Notes under the pieces: generated by a model
What the model was told of the DNA's origin: nothing
Databases searched by the model: none
The model's input: only the letters and a program-made list of their open reading frames with translations
Shown: piece by piece, positions 19,301 to 63,354 of the stretch
How the letters are laid out: each line of letters starts with the position of its first letter
Numbering within the stretch: position 1 is the stretch's first letter
Assembly: GCF_988243305.1 (NCBI RefSeq)
Contig: NZ_OZ547136.1
Reading direction: 5' to 3' (one strand)
Length of the DNA stretch: 64,000 nucleotides
Made by a program: the position numbers and the translations under genes

Positions 19301-19789
19301 ATGAAGACCATTCTACCTGCAGTATTGTTTGCCGCTTTCGCCACCACTTCCGCCTGGGCGGCAGAAAGCGTCCAGCCACTGGAAAAAATCGCGCCTTATC
19401 CACAAGCTGAAAAAGGCATGAAGCGTCAGGTGATTCAGTTAACCCCGCAAGAAGATGAATCTACCCTGAAAGTAGAACTGTTAATCGGCCAGACGCTGGA
19501 AGTCGATTGCAATTTGCATCGTCTCGGCGGGAAGCTGGAAAGCAAAACGCTGGAAGGCTGGGGCTATGATTATTACGTCTTTGATAAAGTTAGCTCGCCG
19601 GTTTCCACGATGATGGCCTGCCCGGATGGCAAGAAAGAGAAGAAATTTGTCACCGCGTATCTGGGCGATGCCGGAATGCTGCGTTATAACAGCAAGCTGC
19701 CGATCGTGGTGTATACGCCAGACAATGTGGATGTGAAGTACCGCATCTGGAAGGCGGAAGAGAAAATTGACAACGCGGTAGTCCGCTAA
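19301..19789 (+). CDS. eco: Ecotin, periplasmic serine protease inhibitor
   Basis: 162-aa product [44 protein letters not shown]; the ORF track starts 7 codons earlier at 19280. Confidence 0.92.
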
Positions 19790-44619: not shown

Positions 44620-51508
<6,889 letters not shown>

Positions 51509-55171: not shown

Positions 55172-58100
55172 CTACCATTTCACCGTCATCGACAAAAACC
55201 CTGCCGTCTGGGCAAAATCATCACTCCCTTTCTGCCACGCCACGTTACCACGCAGGGACACTCGCTGACTGATATTGCCCGTGACTCCCACTTTTATTTC
55301 ACCCCGTTGCTTCACCGCATCGTCACTGATAGTGCTGCCATCTTCTTCAATTTTCGTCGCATGGGGATCGTGATAATAATTCAGATCTAATGTTGGTATG
55401 ACATGAACAGAGGTACGCCATTCGCTGTGTAAACCCAGCCGCGTTTGAATATCATCACCCTGCGATTGTGACACGCGCGCATGGTTAGCGGCGGTAAAAT
55501 CATCCTGCTGCACGCCCTGATAAATCACCTGCGCCTGCGGTTCAACCACCACACCACGCCCCGGTAACCACTGATACCCCGCTTCCAGCGAGGCGATAAT
55601 CCCCGACGAATGGTAATGATCTGTGCCATCGTCTTGTTCGGAAACATCATTGTTAAACCACGCGTATTGCAGCCAGCTATCCAGCCAGGCCCCCTGCTTC
55701 TGATTACCGTGCTGAAACCAGCTTGAGGTCAGACCAACGGCATAACCGTGGTTCTGGTTATCGGCGCGAGTTCCGGTCATATTCGAGCGGCTGTCGCCCT
55801 GGTTATCACTGTAGCCACCAACCGCCCCAAGCATCCACTCGCCATCCGCGCCCCAGCGCCCGCTAAACAAGTCGCCGCTAAGCTGCACCGTAGAAGTGTC
55901 TTCATGCTGAGCCAGTTGCCCCGCTGCTGTGTAATGATAATTTCCGCCGATAACACGTAAATTCAGCGTCTGACCATCGCCACCAGCGTGATCGTGTCGC
56001 TCCATCACAAACGCCTGATTTGCCGCCCGCAGGTTATTAAAATATCCACCAACTTTGGCATTCAACACCGGCTGGTAGGCAGGCGTAGGTTCCGGGTCGG
56101 GTGTTGGATCAGGAGTCGGGTCTGGATCAGGTGGCGATGGTGGCGTTGCTTCTTGCGATCGCAGATACCAGTCGTTGTTATCTTCCACCAGCGTGTAGTC
56201 ATACGCTCCCATATTGACGTAGCCGCTGCCCGCCAGACTGAACTGCGCATTGTTTTGAAATTGCGTTGGATCGGCTGCGAAATCAACCACTTTAATGCCT
56301 GTAGATGTCGGCTCACCAATACCCGTAATGGGATTAATTACCACGGTCGTGTTGCCAGCAGTATTACCGTTCAACACCAGTTGGTCACTTGCCGAGTCAT
56401 CGCCGTTTAATTCGCTATCGAGCAGTAGCGTACCACCGCCGGTATAATCACCGTTTACCGTCAGCGTGTCGCCGGCGACGCCATTTTGCAGGCTGACCGC
56501 ACCGGACGTATTGGTCAGATTGCCATTAACTGTTACGTCGGAAAGATAAGTCAGGCTGTCAGTTTCAAGGTTGGTGTTAAGCTCGCCTGTCAACGTCACG
56601 CCATCGGTGGCATTCACCAGCGTCCCATCGCCGTTAAACAGTGAGGCATTAAGGGCGACGGAAGTATCCTGCCCGGTCAGGCGCAAAACCGTACCATCGC
56701 TGATGTCGATAGTGCCGCTGGAAGTAACATCAATTGACTGAATATCCTGATCCGCGCCAGTCTTGAACGTTGCCCCGCCACCGACCCACAGCGACGAAGC
56801 ATAAGGGAAGATATCCGCAACATCGCCTTGCAGCGTGCCTTCTTCGACACGTACCGCCGACTGCGTCGTACCGCTGGCGGTCAGTTCCAGCGTACCCGCC
56901 CCCGTTTTCGTCAATGTGCTACCCTCATCCTGATGCTGCCCGCTGCTGTCAGCCATCAGTGCGCCCCACTGCGTGTCTACCCCCGCATCAACTGCCACTT
57001 CACCGTCGGCGCGCATTTCAATATCACGCCCATGCTCAGTCGTTGTAGAGCGAGTATCGACATTTGCAGTAATCTCCATCACGCTTTCTTGTTGATTATC
57101 GGTAAAGATAACCTGGCGGTTGTAATGGGTATCTCCAAGCTGCGAGTTGTCGCTCACCACCAGCGTACCGGAAGCGATTTGCGTGGTGCCCAGGTAACTA
57201 TTATTGTTTGCCAGGCTAATCAGCCCGTCGCCCGCATCGACCACCACGTAGACGCCATCTTTCCCGTCGCCGCCGATATGCAAATTGTCGCCACCTGCGA
57301 GATCCACCACATCCTGACTGCCGATAACCGTACCGCCGCTGCCGCTGACTGCAAGGCCATCGTTGTATGATGTGCCGCTCTGCCAGGTGGCGAAATCAGA
57401 GAGATCAAGCACACCGCCGTTTAACACGATCGACTGCGGATCGTCCTGGAGAGCGGCAAGATCTGCCGCGTCGCCTTCCAGCGAAAGCACCGCACCATCA
57501 TCAACGACTATATCGCCAGTTAGCGCCATCGACTGTGCCCCTGCCAGCACGTAGCTGCCGTTTTGCGCAATGGTGAGCTGACCAGCACCTTCGATGGTGC
57601 CAGCAAAACTGCCCTGATTAACAGTAACGTTGCCACCAGCATCGATATTTAAAGTGCCATTCTGAAAGCCCGTCAATGCGTGCACAAAAGTTTGTTGGGT
57701 CGAGCCAACGTTTAGCTCAGCCTGATTCTGATACTGATCAATACTCCCTATCGTCAGACCGTAGCAGTCTTGCGTATCGTCCTGGCAATGCGTATCGCCG
57801 ACATTCATCAGGGAGTTGCTGCGGCCCAGGGTAACTTCACCGTTTTCAATCTGCATCTCGCCAGTAAAGTCATTGTTATCTGCATTAAGTACCAGATCGC
57901 CGGAACCTGTTTTGGTGATTAACCCGGTACCAGCAATAGAGTCAACAGCTCCGTCATTCTCTGTATTGCCGATAACCAGCGTTTTTCCGTCGGCAATATC
58001 AAAGGTAACGTCACTTAAGCCGAGATACATAAAGCCACCCGCCGCAGTGGAAGGACCATCTCCATAGCCTGCTGCGCTATTGTTCTCATCCACTAAAACA

Positions 58101-58900
58101 CCGTTGTTCTGGCTGTAGCTGTCATCAACTGAAATATCAATAAGATAGGGAGCCGTCACGCTATTGGTATAAATCGCCCCGCCATATCCCTCAGCAGAGT
58201 TATTTGTAAATGCGGTGTTATTTATTATTGTGAAACCTGACGGATGCGTGATATCGCTATTATTATCGGTGACATCGATTGCCCCTCCATCGCCATCACT
58301 GTAACTTGTTGATGTATATGCCTGGTTATTGTCAAAAATAACTTCATTTAAATAGACGTCATTGTTGATGGTATAAATTGCACCACCTTTGCCGTCATTA
58401 GCGATGTTATTGCGAAACACGGCGTTAGTGACACGTAAATCGACGACACCGGTATCGTTAGTACCAGAAGAATAGATTGCGCCACCATAGCCACCTGCAA
58501 CGTTACCGGAAAAAATAACATTAGTAAGATTCAGCGTTGAGTTTTCTTTAGCAAATATTGCCCCGCCGTTATTATATTCTCCTGAGACAGTATTATTGGC
58601 AAACAGAGTCATTCCAGTTTCATTTTCTGGCGATAGAGAAAACTCCGCTCCTTGTTGCAAAAATACGGCCCCACCGCTGGCGTTATTAGTCATATCCGAA
58701 AAAACCAGCCATTGCCCATCGGCGATGCTCCAGTCCTGCGTAATGCCTGAAAGGCTTTGCCTGCTGGCGTGACAACTCGCTTTGATATCATATCCCTGAC
58801 ATGAATCAATGACCGCCGCGACACCGTTAGCAGAGAAAAGAGATGCAATCATTGACGGGAGTAAAGATAAATACTCCTTGCGTAGAAAAATAATCCGCAT
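55172..58900 (-). CDS. yfaL: Autotransporter adhesin YfaL (EhaC-like), 1242 codons
   Basis: Large ORF with signal peptide, repetitive Gly/Thr/Asn/Asp-rich passenger domain, Pro-rich linker (PPSPPDPDPTPDPTPDPEPTP) and C-terminal beta-barrel ending ..LSMTVKW. Confidence 0.9.
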   Translation of the reverse strand: MRIIFLRKEYLSLLPSMIASLFSANGVAAVIDSCQGYDIKASCHASRQSLSGITQDWSIADGQWLVFSDMTNNASGGAVFLQQGAEFSLSPENETGMTLFANNTVSGEYNNGGAIFAKENSTLNLTNVIFSGNVAGGYGGAIYSSGTNDTGVVDLRVTNAVFRNNIANDGKGGAIYTINNDVYLNEVIFDNNQAYTSTSYSDGDGGAIDVTDNNSDITHPSGFTIINNTAFTNNSAEGYGGAIYTNSVTAPYLIDISVDDSYSQNNGVLVDENNSAAGYGDGPSTAAGGFMYLGLSDVTFDIADGKTLVIGNTENDGAVDSIAGTGLITKTGSGDLVLNADNNDFTGEMQIENGEVTLGRSNSLMNVGDTHCQDDTQDCYGLTIGSIDQYQNQAELNVGSTQQTFVHALTGFQNGTLNIDAGGNVTVNQGSFAGTIEGAGQLTIAQNGSYVLAGAQSMALTGDIVVDDGAVLSLEGDAADLAALQDDPQSIVLNGGVLDLSDFATWQSGTSYNDGLAVSGSGGTVIGSQDVVDLAGGDNLHIGGDGKDGVYVVVDAGDGLISLANNNSYLGTTQIASGTLVVSDNSQLGDTHYNRQVIFTDNQQESVMEITANVDTRSTTTEHGRDIEMRADGEVAVDAGVDTQWGALMADSSGQHQDEGSTLTKTGAGTLELTASGTTQSAVRVEEGTLQGDVADIFPYASSLWVGGGATFKTGADQDIQSIDVTSSGTIDISDGTVLRLTGQDTSVALNASLFNGDGTLVNATDGVTLTGELNTNLETDSLTYLSDVTVNGNLTNTSGAVSLQNGVAGDTLTVNGDYTGGGTLLLDSELNGDDSASDQLVLNGNTAGNTTVVINPITGIGEPTSTGIKVVDFAADPTQFQNNAQFSLAGSGYVNMGAYDYTLVEDNNDWYLRSQEATPPSPPDPDPTPDPTPDPEPTPAYQPVLNAKVGGYFNNLRAANQAFVMERHDHAGGDGQTLNLRVIGGNYHYTAAGQLAQHEDTSTVQLSGDLFSGRWGADGEWMLGAVGGYSDNQGDSRSNMTGTRADNQNHGYAVGLTSSWFQHGNQKQGAWLDSWLQYAWFNNDVSEQDDGTDHYHSSGIIASLEAGYQWLPGRGVVVEPQAQVIYQGVQQDDFTAANHARVSQSQGDDIQTRLGLHSEWRTSVHVIPTLDLNYYHDPHATKIEEDGSTISDDAVKQRGEIKVGVTGNISQRVSLRGNVAWQKGSDDFAQTAGFLSMTVKW

Positions 58901-59433
58901 ATTAATCTGACCATCATTTTCTATAAGACGGCATATTTAATCGCATTATACGATATGGGTTATTTTTCTTTTGTAAATTGTTCAACCCGGTGCAATGGCT
59001 ATTTTGTTATTATTTCATGAATAATATCAGTGCGTCATAATTCAAGTTAATCACCTTAAGGGATATTAGTTATATTTAAACTGAATTAAAGTAATGAATA
59101 ATTTTCTTATAATATAAGGTAAATTAACAAAATGGCTTCGCATTTAACAATAACCGAAGAGAAAACAACCATTTCGATATCAACAATCGCTTACATTCGC
59201 TTATATATTGACCAGAACTGATACATCAGATTATGTGATGACTCGTGCTTAGATCAATTTTTGCAATCATTAGCCAAAAGATTAATAAACCATCTATATC
59301 AATTTATCTAACCTATTCTTCCGTTCAAGAAATCGCCGAACAGTTATTTTTAACAAATTTTTCTCTTCCCATTGACTTTCCCGGACACCTTGTCTGACCT
59401 AAGGTGCGCGAAAGCCACTTTTTCCTTCCTGAG

Positions 59434-59454
59434 TTATCCACAAAGTTATGCACT
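59434..59454 (+). promoter_or_regulatory. Tandem DnaA boxes upstream of the nrdA promoter
   Basis: TTATCCACA (59434-59442, perfect consensus) and TTATGCACT (59446-59454, 8/9). Confidence 0.8.
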
Positions 59455-59520
59455 TGCAAGAGGGCCATTTTCACACTATCTTGCAGTGAATCCCAAACAT
59501 ACCCCCTATATATAGTGTTC
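59454..59520 (+). promoter_or_regulatory. nrdAB promoter (-35 TTGCAA at 59454-59459, -10 TATCTT at 59477-59482) with putative NrdR boxes
   Basis: Hexamers with 17-bp spacing; partially palindromic elements CACACTATCTTGCAGTG (59473-59489) and CCTATATATAGTGTT (59504-59519) resemble NrdR boxes. Confidence 0.5.
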
Positions 59521-59595
59521 TAAGCAGCTTCCCTCACTACAGGTAGTCTGCATGAAACTATTGCGGAAAGAATTCCAAAAACAGGTACGACATAC

Positions 59596-61881
59596 ATGAA
59601 TCAGAATCTGCTGGTGACAAAGCGCGACGGTAGCACAGAGCGCATCAATCTCGACAAAATCCATCGCGTTCTGGATTGGGCGGCAGAAGGACTGCATAAC
59701 GTTTCGATTTCCCAGGTCGAACTGCGCTCCCACATTCAGTTTTATGACGGTATCAAGACCTCTGACATCCACGAAACCATTATCAAGGCTGCCGCAGACC
59801 TGATCTCCCGTGATGCGCCGGATTATCAGTATCTCGCCGCGCGCCTGGCAATCTTCCACCTGCGTAAAAAAGCCTACGGCCAGTTTGAGCCGCCTGCGCT
59901 GTACGACCACGTGGTGAAAATGGTCGAGATGGGCAAATACGATAATCATCTGCTGGAAGACTACACGGAAGAAGAGTTCAAGCAGATGGACACGTTTATC
60001 GATCACGACCGTGATATGACCTTCTCTTATGCTGCCGTTAAGCAGCTGGAAGGCAAATATCTGGTACAGAACCGCGTGACCGGCGAAATCTACGAAAGCG
60101 CCCAGTTCCTTTATATTCTGGTTGCCGCGTGCCTGTTCTCGAACTACCCGCGTGAAACGCGCCTGCAATACGTGAAGCGTTTTTACGACGCGGTTTCCAC
60201 ATTTAAAATTTCGCTGCCGACGCCAATCATGTCCGGCGTGCGTACCCCGACTCGTCAGTTCAGCTCCTGCGTACTGATCGAGTGCGGTGACAGCCTGGAT
60301 TCCATTAACGCCACCTCCAGCGCGATTGTTAAATACGTTTCCCAGCGTGCCGGGATCGGCATCAATGCCGGGCGTATTCGTGCGCTGGGTAGCCCGATTC
60401 GCGGTGGCGAAGCGTTCCATACCGGTTGTATTCCGTTCTATAAGCATTTCCAGACAGCGGTGAAATCCTGCTCTCAGGGCGGTGTGCGTGGCGGTGCGGC
60501 TACGCTGTTCTACCCGATGTGGCATCTGGAAGTGGAAAGCCTGCTGGTGTTGAAAAACAACCGTGGGGTGGAAGGCAACCGCGTGCGTCACATGGACTAC
60601 GGGGTACAAATCAACAAACTGATGTATACCCGTCTGCTGAAAGGTGAAGATATCACTCTGTTCAGCCCGTCCGACGTACCGGGGTTGTACGACGCGTTCT
60701 TCGCCGATCAGGAAGAGTTTGAACGCCTGTACACCAAATATGAGAAAGACGACAGCATCCGCAAGCAGCGTGTGAAAGCCGTTGAGCTGTTCTCGCTGAT
60801 GATGCAGGAACGTGCGTCTACCGGTCGTATCTATATTCAGAACGTTGACCACTGCAATACCCATAGCCCGTTTGATCCGGCCATCGCGCCAGTGCGCCAG
60901 TCTAACCTGTGCCTGGAAATCGCCCTGCCGACCAAACCGCTGAATGATGTCAACGACGAGAACGGTGAAATCGCGCTGTGTACGCTGTCTGCTTTCAACC
61001 TGGGCGCAATTAATAGCCTGGATGAACTGGAAGAGCTGGCGATTCTGGCGGTACGCGCACTCGACGCGCTGCTGGACTATCAGGATTACCCGATCCCGGC
61101 CGCCAAACGTGGAGCGATGGGTCGTCGTACGCTGGGTATTGGTGTGATCAACTTCGCTTACTACCTGGCGAAGCACGGTAAACGCTACTCCGACGGCAGC
61201 GCCAACAACCTGACGCATAAAACCTTCGAAGCCATTCAGTATTACCTGCTGAAAGCCTCTAATGAGCTGGCGAAAGAGCAAGGCGCGTGCCCGTGGTTTA
61301 ACGAAACCACTTACGCGAAAGGGATCCTGCCGATCGATACCTATAAGAAAGATCTGGATGCCATCGCTAATGAGCCGCTGCATTACGACTGGGAAGCACT
61401 GCGTGAGTCAATCAAAACGCACGGCCTGCGTAACTCCACGCTTTCTGCCCTGATGCCGTCCGAGACCTCTTCGCAGATCTCTAACGCCACTAACGGTATT
61501 GAACCGCCGCGCGGTTACGTCAGCATCAAAGCGTCGAAAGACGGTATTCTCCGCCAGGTGGTGCCTGACTACGAGCATCTGCACGACGCCTATGAGCTGC
61601 TGTGGGAAATGCCGGGTAACGATGGCTACCTGCAACTGGTGGGTATCATGCAGAAATTTATCGATCAGTCGATCTCTGCTAACACCAACTACGATCCGTC
61701 ACGCTTCCCGTCAGGAAAAGTGCCGATGCAGCAACTGCTGAAAGACCTGCTCACCGCCTACAAATTCGGGGTCAAAACGCTGTATTATCAGAACACCCGT
61801 GACGGTGCTGAAGACGCACAAGACGATCTGGTGCCGTCAATCCAGGACGATGGCTGCGAAAGCGGCGCATGCAAGATCTGA
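59596..61881 (+). CDS. nrdA: Class Ia ribonucleoside-diphosphate reductase alpha subunit NrdA
   Basis: 761-aa ORF MNQNLLVTKRDGSTERINLDKIHRVLDWAAEGL with ATP-cone and catalytic cysteines. Confidence 0.97.
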   Translation: MNQNLLVTKRDGSTERINLDKIHRVLDWAAEGLHNVSISQVELRSHIQFYDGIKTSDIHETIIKAAADLISRDAPDYQYLAARLAIFHLRKKAYGQFEPPALYDHVVKMVEMGKYDNHLLEDYTEEEFKQMDTFIDHDRDMTFSYAAVKQLEGKYLVQNRVTGEIYESAQFLYILVAACLFSNYPRETRLQYVKRFYDAVSTFKISLPTPIMSGVRTPTRQFSSCVLIECGDSLDSINATSSAIVKYVSQRAGIGINAGRIRALGSPIRGGEAFHTGCIPFYKHFQTAVKSCSQGGVRGGAATLFYPMWHLEVESLLVLKNNRGVEGNRVRHMDYGVQINKLMYTRLLKGEDITLFSPSDVPGLYDAFFADQEEFERLYTKYEKDDSIRKQRVKAVELFSLMMQERASTGRIYIQNVDHCNTHSPFDPAIAPVRQSNLCLEIALPTKPLNDVNDENGEIALCTLSAFNLGAINSLDELEELAILAVRALDALLDYQDYPIPAAKRGAMGRRTLGIGVINFAYYLAKHGKRYSDGSANNLTHKTFEAIQYYLLKASNELAKEQGACPWFNETTYAKGILPIDTYKKDLDAIANEPLHYDWEALRESIKTHGLRNSTLSALMPSETSSQISNATNGIEPPRGYVSIKASKDGILRQVVPDYEHLHDAYELLWEMPGNDGYLQLVGIMQKFIDQSISANTNYDPSRFPSGKVPMQQLLKDLLTAYKFGVKTLYYQNTRDGAEDAQDDLVPSIQDDGCESGACKI

Positions 61882-61910
61882 TAATCCCCCAGCCTTTGCA
61901 CCAAACCGTC

Positions 61911-61933
61911 CCCTCTCCCCTTGCGGGAGAGGG
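61911..61933 (+). other. GC-rich stem-loop in the nrdA-nrdB intercistronic spacer
   Basis: 9-bp perfect stem CCCTCTCCC/GGGAGAGGG with loop CTTGC; no downstream T-run, so not a canonical terminator. Confidence 0.6.
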
Positions 61934-61969
61934 TTAGGGTGAGGGGTAATAAAACCACAGGACACATTC

Positions 61970-63100
61970 ATGGCATATACCACCTTTTCACAGACGAAAA
62001 ATGATCAGCTCAAAGAACCGATGTTCTTTGGTCAGCCGGTCAACGTGGCTCGCTACGATCAGCAAAAATATGACATCTTCGAAAAGCTGATCGAAAAGCA
62101 GCTCTCTTTCTTCTGGCGTCCGGAAGAAGTTGACGTTTCTCGTGACCGTATCGATTACCAGGCACTGCCTGAACACGAAAAACACATCTTTATCAGCAAC
62201 CTGAAATATCAGACGCTGCTGGACTCCATTCAGGGTCGCAGCCCGAACGTGGCACTGCTGCCGCTGATCTCGATCCCTGAACTGGAAACCTGGGTCGAAA
62301 CCTGGGCGTTCTCAGAAACCATTCACTCTCGTTCTTATACCCATATCATTCGTAATATCGTTAACGATCCGTCCGTTGTGTTTGATGATATCGTCACCAA
62401 CGAGCAGATCCAGAAACGTGCGGAAGGGATCTCCAGTTATTACGATGAGCTGATCGAAATGACCAGCTACTGGCATCTGCTGGGCGAAGGTACCCACACC
62501 GTTAACGGTAAAACCGTAACCGTTAGCCTGCGCGAGCTGAAGAAAAAACTGTATCTCTGCCTGATGAGCGTTAACGCGCTGGAAGCGATCCGCTTCTACG
62601 TCAGCTTTGCTTGTTCCTTTGCCTTTGCAGAACGCGAACTGATGGAAGGTAACGCCAAAATTATTCGCCTGATTGCCCGCGACGAAGCCCTGCACCTGAC
62701 CGGTACTCAGCATATGCTGAATCTGCTGCGCAGCGGTGCGGATGATCCGGAGATGGCGGAAATTGCCGAAGAATGTAAGCAGGAGTGCTATGACCTGTTT
62801 GTCCAGGCGGCACAGCAAGAGAAAGACTGGGCGGATTATCTGTTCCGCGACGGTTCGATGATTGGTCTGAATAAAGACATTCTCTGCCAGTACGTTGAAT
62901 ACATCACCAATATCCGCATGCAGGCAGTCGGTTTGGATCTGCCGTTCCAGACGCGCTCCAACCCGATCCCGTGGATCAATACCTGGCTGGTGTCTGATAA
63001 CGTGCAGGTTGCTCCGCAGGAAGTGGAAGTCAGTTCTTATCTGGTCGGGCAGATTGACTCGGAAGTGGACACCGACGATTTGAGTAACTTCCAGCTCTGA
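61970..63100 (+). CDS. nrdB: Class Ia ribonucleotide reductase beta subunit NrdB
   Basis: 376-aa [58 protein letters not shown]. Confidence 0.97.
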
Positions 63101-63354
63101 TGGCTCGCGTTACCCTGCGCATCACTGGCACACAACTGCTGTGCCAGGATGAACACCCTTCCCTTCTGGCGGCGCTGGAATCCCACAATGTGGCGGTTGA
63201 GTACCAGTGCCGCGAAGGTTACTGCGGTTCCTGTCGCACGCGCCTTGTTGCAGGCCAGGTGGACTGGATTGCCGAACCGTTAGCCTTTATTCAGCCGGGG
63301 GAAATTTTGCCTTGTTGTTGCCGGGCAAAAGGCGATATTGAAATCGAGTTGTGA
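63100..63354 (+). CDS. yfaE: 2Fe-2S ferredoxin YfaE (NrdB maintenance)
   Basis: 84-aa ORF with ferredoxin cysteine pattern (CREGYCGSC ... CCC); 1-nt overlap with the nrdB stop. Confidence 0.92.
   Translation: MARVTLRITGTQLLCQDEHPSLLAALESHNVAVEYQCREGYCGSCRTRLVAGQVDWIAEPLAFIQPGEILPCCCRAKGDIEIEL

Follow-up and report, generated by a model that had tools for sequence, protein, structure and literature searches.

The window analysed here is a stretch of 64,000 nucleotides from contig NZ_OZ547136.1 (RefSeq assembly GCF_988243305.1). Positions 59434–59520 lie in the yfaL/ypaB–nrdA intergenic region and constitute the E. coli nrdAB promoter. The operon that it regulates, nrdA-nrdB-yfaE (59596–63354), follows on the plus strand and comprises nrdA (59596–61881), nrdB (61970–63100) and yfaE (63100–63354), each identified from its open reading frame and from how RefSeq annotates E. 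coli records that are identical or nearly so. On the minus strand lie yfaL (55172–58900) and the annotated small open reading frame ypaB (59325–59468, 47 aa), which overlies the DnaA boxes and the −35 element on the strand opposite to them. The 800 bases around the site match E. coli strain 118UI at 100% identity and a K-12-like chromosome at 97%. Of 5426 complete E. coli genomes, 5423 contain them; a 126-bp core is present as a single chromosomal copy, with at least 95% identity, in 5425 of the 5426. The three downstream reading frames and the perfect match to an annotated E. coli chromosome bear out the assignment to the nrdAB locus made in a preliminary description of this DNA, which had been drawn up from the sequence alone.

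The best-studied counterpart of this region is K-12 nrdAp, which has the same elements at the same positions of the same locus; 59330–59600 aligns to it without gaps. The DnaA double box, the −35 and −10 hexamers and the NrdR boxes 0 and 1 are identical, and the two sequences differ by three substitutions in total: a C in the window for a T in K-12 at 59466, in the promoter spacer, and TC for GT at 59534–59535, which are positions 1–2, both non-key, of NrdR box 2. Across the Escherichia sequences compared, TC is the commoner state of these two positions, and the double box, the −35, the −10 and the core of box 2 are invariant within Escherichia and the metagenome-assembled genome L014. The K-12 literature from which we took the transcription start site (TSS), the DnaA occupancy and the NrdR affinities therefore concerns an identical or nearly identical sequence. 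Farther upstream, on the plus strand, is a conserved block, AAGAAATC...TTTTTC...ATTGAC...CCTTG (59329–59392), several sub-blocks of which are common to 80–99% of 77 enterobacterial nrdA upstream regions of both promoter types described below. Reported regulators of nrdAB include Fis, IciA and H-NS, and the block is probably a region of activator sites for Fis and other factors.

The core promoter is formed by a −35 hexamer, TTGCAA (59454–59459, plus strand), with four of six matches to TTGACA, and a −10 hexamer, TATCTT (59477–59482, plus strand), with four of six matches to TATAAT, separated by 17 bp. Both hexamers and a spacer within the 16–18 bp of sigma-70 promoters are thus present, and the total of 8/12 marks the promoter as weak. 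The genome-wide set of K-12 transcription start sites of Kim et al. (2012; PMC3415461, supplementary file 2) gives nrdA a 5' UTR of 107 nt. The nrdA promoter string published in the same study, CACAAAGTTATGCACTTGCAAGAGGGTCATTTTCACACTATCTTGCAGTGA, ends in ...CACTATCTTGCAGTGA, and its last base is the start. This 51-nt string is identical to the window save for the spacer base 59466, and placing its last base on the window puts +1 at A59489 on the plus strand. The −35 hexamer then spans −35 to −30 and the −10 hexamer −12 to −7, with the start 7 bp past TATCTT (within the range of 5–9 bp), in data that are from K-12 and from one high-throughput study. The TTGCAA/TATCTT promoter proposed beforehand is therefore found at its place, with both hexamers in register with the mapped start.

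With its score of 8/12, TTGCAA/TATCTT fell below the 9/12 cut-off of a simple promoter and terminator scan and was not called. Seven other promoter consensus matches, which the same scan returned in the AT-rich spacer region, were dropped, since the mapped start agrees with TTGCAA/TATCTT. The supplements of Cappable-seq work, consulted as a second source of start sites, held no matching nrdA coordinate. An S1 mapping of nrdA from 1986 reportedly gave a leader of about 110 nt rather than 107. An RNA element in the 5' UTR was considered and rejected, given that an Rfam search of the region returned no match at an E value of 1 or less and that the folding energy of the 107-nt leader is no better than that of shuffles (z = −0.04).

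Two DnaA boxes in the same orientation adjoin this promoter. Scored against the 9-mer consensus TTATNCACA, box 1 (TTATCCACA, 59434–59442, plus strand, −55 to −47) is perfect and box 2 (TTATGCACT, 59446–59454, plus strand, −43 to −35) matches at eight of nine positions; the gap between them is 3 bp, and the last T of box 2 is the first T of the −35 hexamer. Single sites of this kind are no more frequent in the 64-kb window than expected by chance, whether perfect (3 observed versus 1.9 expected) or with at most one mismatch (35 versus 47.8), and the two further perfect boxes, at 19396 and 46181, each lie within a gene with no second box beside them. The double box (at most one mismatch in total, gap of 2–3 bp) occurs once in the 64 kb, at nrdA, and was met in 2 of 500 shuffles, with a shuffle mean of 0.004. 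DnaA box 1 does not vary among E. coli, E. albertii, L014 and the copies carried by elements of the P1 family.

It has been demonstrated by ChIP-seq that DnaA binds 16 regions in K-12, nrdA among them with a 14-fold enrichment over control (PMC11317965). The nrdA double box reported in that study, gTTATCCACAaagTTATGCACTt, has DnaA box 1 as its upstream half and is identical to the 23 nt of window positions 59433–59455. The same work found that DnaA generally requires pairs of boxes 2–3 bp apart, and that mutation of either single nrdA site disrupts its binding. The tandem boxes described earlier from the sequence, one perfect and one 8/9, thus not only lie where they were placed, next to the −35, but coincide with a site occupied in vivo. 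The other double boxes bound in vivo (polA, purH, datA, the oriC R-boxes, DARS1/2 and mioC) resemble that of nrdA in being direct 9-mers 2–3 bp apart, of which one is the perfect TTATCCACA (PMC11317965). They differ from it in two respects: the perfect box is the upstream one at nrdA and the downstream one in most of the others listed, and the nrdA pair also touches the −35 hexamer.

Published accounts mention further elements. A review describes three nrdAB DnaA boxes, of which two are indifferent to the bound nucleotide and one is specific for DnaA-ATP. In the promoter spacer we found a DnaA-like 9-mer with two mismatches, ATTTTCACA (59467–59475, plus strand, −22 to −14); going by its sequence and position, we would guess that it might be the low-affinity DnaA-ATP site of the review. 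Sites of such quality occur about 8 times per kb, so this one is not significant by itself. A "45-bp inverted repeat" upstream of the DnaA boxes is mentioned in a paper that argues for repression by DnaA from array data; between 58900 and 59600 we found no convincing long inverted repeat, only short AT-rich ones.

Candidate NrdR boxes were scored as 16-mers on the six positions reported to be conserved (C4, A6, A8, T9, T11 and G13; bioRxiv 10.64898/2026.05.11.724285). Pairs scoring at least 11/12 at a linker of 15–16 bp occur only twice in the 64 kb, against a shuffle mean of 0.23, and both are at nrdAB; there are therefore three boxes in a row and not two. We follow the numbering of Rozman Grinberg et al. 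(2025; PMC12176259), who renamed the "NrdR box 1" of the older literature as box 0. Box 0 (TCACACTATCTTGCAG, 59471–59486) overlaps the −10 and has five of the six key positions, A6 being replaced by C; the 2026 preprint (bioRxiv 10.64898/2026.05.11.724285) likewise describes an upstream NrdR-like box covering the −10 and the start site. Box 1 (CCCCTATATATAGTGT, 59503–59518, +15 to +30) has all six, and box 2 (TCACTACAGGTAGTCT, 59534–59549, +46 to +61) has five of six, with a central AG, that is, G at position 9. None of the three is assigned a strand. Box 0 and box 1, starting at 59471 and 59503, form a pair with a 16-bp linker that scores 11/12, its sole miss being the A6-to-C change in box 0; box 1 and box 2, starting at 59503 and 59534, form the other, with a 15-bp linker (59519–59533) and the same score of 11/12. 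This second pair combines the key positions, the linker and the placement at the promoter of a ribonucleotide reductase operon that are expected of an NrdR operator, and a central AG or CG has been reported to be tolerated experimentally (bioRxiv 10.64898/2026.05.11.724285).

We then compared the nrdA upstream regions of 76 species-representative genomes and of Pectobacterium, Serratia and Brenneria, about 80 in total; the 76 genomes and the window form an alignment of 77 sequences. The outgroups sampled come from three families and comprise Serratia, Hafnia, Brenneria and Pectobacterium, with protein matches limited to the 120 best. All of the regions compared have the upstream block, box 0 (5/6, with C6), the 16-bp linker and box 1, except that the linker is 15 bp long in one Erwinia. 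No element is better conserved than box 1, whose identity to the window averages 0.90 over the 77 sequences. The arrangement of the promoter and of the DnaA boxes around this common part is of two types.

The first, which we call E-type, comprises the regions of E. coli, E. albertii, L014, Hafnia, Serratia and Brenneria: one or more DnaA boxes lie upstream of the −35 CACTTGCAA, conserved throughout this type, and box 0 contains the −10 TATCTT. Its exact form in the window is restricted, among the 80 upstream regions, to Escherichia and L014, and these are also the only ones with NrdR box 2 among the about 80 species compared. Serratia, Hafnia and Brenneria have a looser version, with DnaA-like 9-mers 13 bp apart and no box 2; the spacing is 10 bp shorter in Escherichia, L014 and the P1 copies, which results in the 3-bp gap of the double box. 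The second type, which we call S-type, accounts for 71 of the 77 aligned sequences and, with Pectobacterium, for 72 regions, from Salmonella, Citrobacter, Klebsiella, Enterobacter, Pantoea, Erwinia and Pectobacterium (Enterobacteriaceae, Erwiniaceae and Pectobacterium). It shares with E. coli the operon, the upstream block, box 0, the 16-bp linker, box 1 and a double DnaA box with a 3-bp gap, but differs in where these stand relative to the promoter. The S-type core promoter, TTGTnC, 16 bp, TAGAAT, ends directly before box 0 and is thus located about 8 bp further upstream, and the double DnaA box, TTATCCACAnnnTTAnnCACA, begins at the base after box 1, in what would be the transcribed leader if the S-type start is placed from this promoter. 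A third box, inverted, stands about 20 bp beyond the double box, and there is no NrdR box 2.

How DnaA acts on nrdAB is disputed in the literature, the array paper taking it for a repressor and others reporting positive regulation. According to the review, nrdAB is activated at low DnaA-ATP or with DnaA-ADP, and repressed at high DnaA-ATP. We suggest that RNA polymerase starts at A59489 from the intrinsically weak promoter TTGCAA, 17 bp, TATCTT, and that two DnaA molecules may bind the double box cooperatively at −55 to −35, adjoining the −35 hexamer, where activation would presumably involve a contact between DnaA and the polymerase. High DnaA-ATP would spread onto the weaker site or sites over the promoter, among which ATTTTCACA may belong, and lead to repression; such repression would make the synthesis of dNTPs track the initiation status of the chromosome.

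The alternative that survives best is that the double box is only negative, or serves to titrate DnaA, so that DnaA does not activate nrdAB and the apparent activation is indirect. Several observations speak for it: nrdAB mRNA rises in dnaA46 at the non-permissive temperature, from which the authors of the array paper inferred that DnaA is a repressor; DnaA variants deficient in ATP binding raise nrdAB expression, according to the review; in the 72 species with the S-type layout the double box lies past the start region, a position from which DnaA could plausibly only repress; and elements of the P1 family retain the boxes with no nrd gene at all. The reviews and the ChIP-seq study (PMC11317965) nevertheless give nrdA as positively regulated at low DnaA occupancy, mutations of the boxes have been reported to lower nrdAB expression, and a site adjoining the −35 of a weak promoter would be typical of an activator. 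We consider a purely negative role unlikely, though it keeps some weight, and prefer the switch between activation at low and repression at high DnaA-ATP.

For NrdR the choice is between the two pairs of boxes. The older model, whose placement of the boxes is also that of the preliminary description, has NrdR bound to box 0 and box 1 around the −10, occluding RNA polymerase directly, with box 2 irrelevant. This pair scores as high as box 1 with box 2, it is kept in all of the about 80 species examined, of which 72 lack box 2, and in Salmonella mutation of either box raises nrdAB expression. In microscale thermophoresis, however, E. coli NrdR bound box 1 with box 2 with a KD of about 113 nM, requiring ATP plus dATP, and box 0 with box 1 with a KD above 6000 nM (PMC12176259); the value of about 113 nM belongs to the K-12 sequence, and two non-key bases of box 2 are different in the window. 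Earlier gel shifts with a 185-bp fragment agree with these affinities in that mutation of box 0 had no effect and mutation of box 1 abolished the shift (PMC12176259). The weak binding of box 0 is explained by its C at position 6, as a C6A change increases the affinity about 10-fold (bioRxiv 10.64898/2026.05.11.724285). The expression data are confounded, as mutations in box 0 alter the −10 too. We therefore find the older model improbable, and take from the measured affinities and the C6 defect that the working operator is box 1 with box 2, at +15 to +61 (59503–59549), downstream of the start.

It follows that the NrdR reading of the preliminary description is partly supported, being right in kind and wrong in register. 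NrdR-like boxes do lie over and after the −10, and box 1 falls inside 59434–59520; the pair around the −10 is, however, the one with a KD above 6 µM versus 113 nM, and box 2 (59534–59549), a half of the working operator, is outside that interval. The annotation of nrdAB should accordingly use the 2025 assignment, with box 1 and box 2 as the operator instead of the pair straddling the −10. So assigned, the nrdAB operator resembles those of E. coli nrdHIEF and nrdDG, which consist of two 16-bp boxes with C4 and G13, an AT-rich centre and a 15-bp linker, and have similar affinities for NrdR (113–160 nM with ATP plus dATP; PMC12176259). We propose that an NrdR tetramer carrying ATP plus dATP would bind box 1 and box 2 just downstream of the start and lower transcription when dATP is plentiful; how NrdR at +15 to +61 blocks transcription is something that we infer. 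Box 0, over the −10, would be an NrdR-like sequence that does not pair productively with box 1 in vitro. The basis of the model with box 1 and box 2 is binding to short oligonucleotides in vitro, together with the older gel shifts, and the model does not explain why about 80 species, most of them lacking box 2, have retained box 0 and its C6.

That the motifs are chance matches, or are conserved on account of the small YpaB protein encoded on the opposite strand, would fit the chance-level frequency of single DnaA boxes in the window and the RefSeq annotation of ypaB at 59325–59468, but can be practically dismissed in view of the rarity of the double box in shuffles (2 of 500), the two NrdR pairs against a shuffle mean of 0.23, and the ChIP-seq (PMC11317965) and binding data (PMC12176259) on the K-12 sequences. 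Coding constraint in particular was rejected as the cause of the conservation, since the DnaA boxes are invariant even where ypaB is damaged, by a stop codon within the frame in E. albertii and by loss of the start codon in a divergent E. coli.

Taken with the sequences, spacing, statistical specificity and conservation observed here, these considerations make us highly confident in an explanation that combines a weak promoter, a switch at the DnaA double box and NrdR at box 1 and box 2. This is in line with the accepted view, also expressed in the preliminary description, that ribonucleotide reductase expression is coupled to replication initiation and to dNTP pools, through DnaA-ATP/ADP and through NrdR with ATP plus dATP. 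The nrdAB promoter features within 59434–59520 are all already known; their finding re-identifies a well-known regulatory region, and thus brings no new biology.

The comparison of the two promoter types is the sole part that may be new: we found no report of the split in the searchable literature, a search that key reviews lie outside. The 5' end of the E. coli nrdA coding sequence has an identity of 0.88–0.92 to Salmonella, Citrobacter and Klebsiella versus 0.76–0.83 to Serratia and Hafnia. It is therefore nearest to genera of the S-type, and the promoter type does not follow the species tree. Judged from these alignments, with three families of outgroups, the discordance suggests that a control region of about 200 bp was replaced horizontally, a reasonable reading although not a proven one. 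We put forward tentatively, as a real possibility somewhat short of an even case, that the layout in the window is a lineage-specific allele of the nrdAB control region acquired by such a replacement, and not the general enterobacterial one. A recent transfer of the promoter between L014 and E. coli was considered separately and rejected, because their identity upstream (0.82) is on a par with that of the coding sequence (0.83).

If this hypothesis is true, possible consequences are that DnaA moved from a downstream position as roadblock or repressor to an upstream switch position, the register of NrdR shifted from box 0 and box 1 to box 1 and box 2, and a shortening by 10 bp in Escherichia made the double box with its 3-bp gap. 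Across about 80 species nrdAB remains coupled to DnaA and NrdR, but the wiring is not conserved, and E. coli, the model organism for the control of nrdAB, has the minority layout. Promoters of the E-type and S-type could be used to address the dispute over DnaA as activator versus repressor, and also the role of box 0.

A replacement of this kind was possibly helped by transducing phages of the P1 family, which carry the E. coli version. We found the upstream block, the double DnaA box and the −35 in 318 plasmid and 15 phage records of this family. An "nrdA-like promoter" with a dnaA box is already annotated in GenBank M95666, and the P1 genome record notes the same; the P1 and P7 records that we compared were M95666, AF234172 and AF503408. 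Copies of the P7 type are 95.4% identical to the window over 59343–59472, upstream block included. A 29-nt block, GAGTTATCCACAAAGTTATGCACTTGCAA, is identical in four of five aligned P1-family copies (a plasmid, P7, P1 and EC19 p2), and the fifth, from pLAU-OXA1, differs in it at several positions. Unlike the chromosomal region, the P1-family copies are followed by no nrd gene and have neither NrdR box 1 nor box 2, the similarity stopping at about the −10 in most variants. In P1, the segment is antisense to small P1 open reading frames.

Comparison of the nrdAB control region across Enterobacterales (window 59400-59560 against loci L005-L087 from other genomes) revealed two discrete layouts. 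That of E. coli has the double DnaA box (59434-59442 and 59446-59454) located 5' of the -35 element (TTGCAA, 59454-59459), with NrdR box 2 (59534-59549) lying downstream. The great majority of the species compared (72 of 80) use another core promoter, and in these NrdR box 1 is bordered directly on its 3' side by the double DnaA box. Among all the species compared, the occurrence of the two layouts is discordant with the species tree. Of the species with the second, Salmonella/Klebsiella-like layout, only Enterobacter sp. Bisph1 (L032) has decayed DnaA boxes (TTCACCCATAAAGCTAAACACA) in the downstream position 5' of nrdA; it retains an intact core promoter and intact NrdR boxes 0 and 1.

The gene neighborhood of the promoter differs as well. 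In E. coli, ubiG and nrdA are separated by the autotransporter gene yfaL (55172-58900). The table of E. coli/Klebsiella orthologs lists nrdA (b2234) directly after ubiG (b2232), and in Pectobacterium a ubiG-like methyltransferase gene is found immediately 5' of nrdA. We therefore conclude that yfaL is an insertion beside the rewired nrdA promoter.

NrdR box 0 (59471-59486), which overlaps the -10 element, is kept in ~80 species, always with the same nonconsensus C at position 6, and the 16-bp linker separating it from box 1 (59503-59518) is likewise conserved across ~80 species. Despite the conservation of box 0, the pair formed by box 0 and box 1 is not bound in vitro by E. coli NrdR (PMC12176259). 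The control region of the window differs from that of K-12 by three substitutions. One of them (C for T at 59466) is in the promoter spacer, adjoining a weak DnaA-like 9-mer, and the other two (TC for GT at 59534-59535) are the first two bases of NrdR box 2. Most Escherichia sequences compared have TC there, and the GT of K-12 looks derived.

The nrdA upstream block, together with the double DnaA box and the -35 element (59343-59472), is also present in the P1 family, both on phages (15 records) and on phage-plasmids (318 plasmid records), with no nrd gene downstream. In the copies that we compared with the window (L002, L083, L084, L089, and L090), identity was 95.4% for the P7-type and between 78% and 90% for the remaining P1-family variants; a 29-nt block spanning both DnaA boxes and the -35 element was identical in most variants aligned. 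The P1 segment already carries the annotation "nrdA-like promoter," both in GenBank M95666 and in the P1 genome record. Two further perfect DnaA boxes (TTATCCACA) occur in the window, at 19396-19404 and 46181-46189, each within a long ORF, and no partner box was found 2-3 bp from either. This fits the published observation that DnaA leaves many isolated consensus boxes unbound.

The DnaA boxes and the -35 element are overlapped on the minus strand by ypaB, annotated as a 47-aa ORF (59325-59468). Its stretch LQVHNFVDNS is nothing more than the double DnaA box in reverse translation, and this peptide recurs in small ORFs predicted on P1 and P1 plasmids. Since E. albertii has a disrupted frame and one divergent E. 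coli has lost the start codon, ypaB is probably not a real gene. The K-12 table of transcription starts (PMC3415461) lists an antisense start within nrdA (~60108, minus strand, converted from the K-12 position), attributed there to ypaB, whose leader would be 640 nt long, and a further start 32 nt 5' of nrdB (~61938, plus strand, similarly converted).
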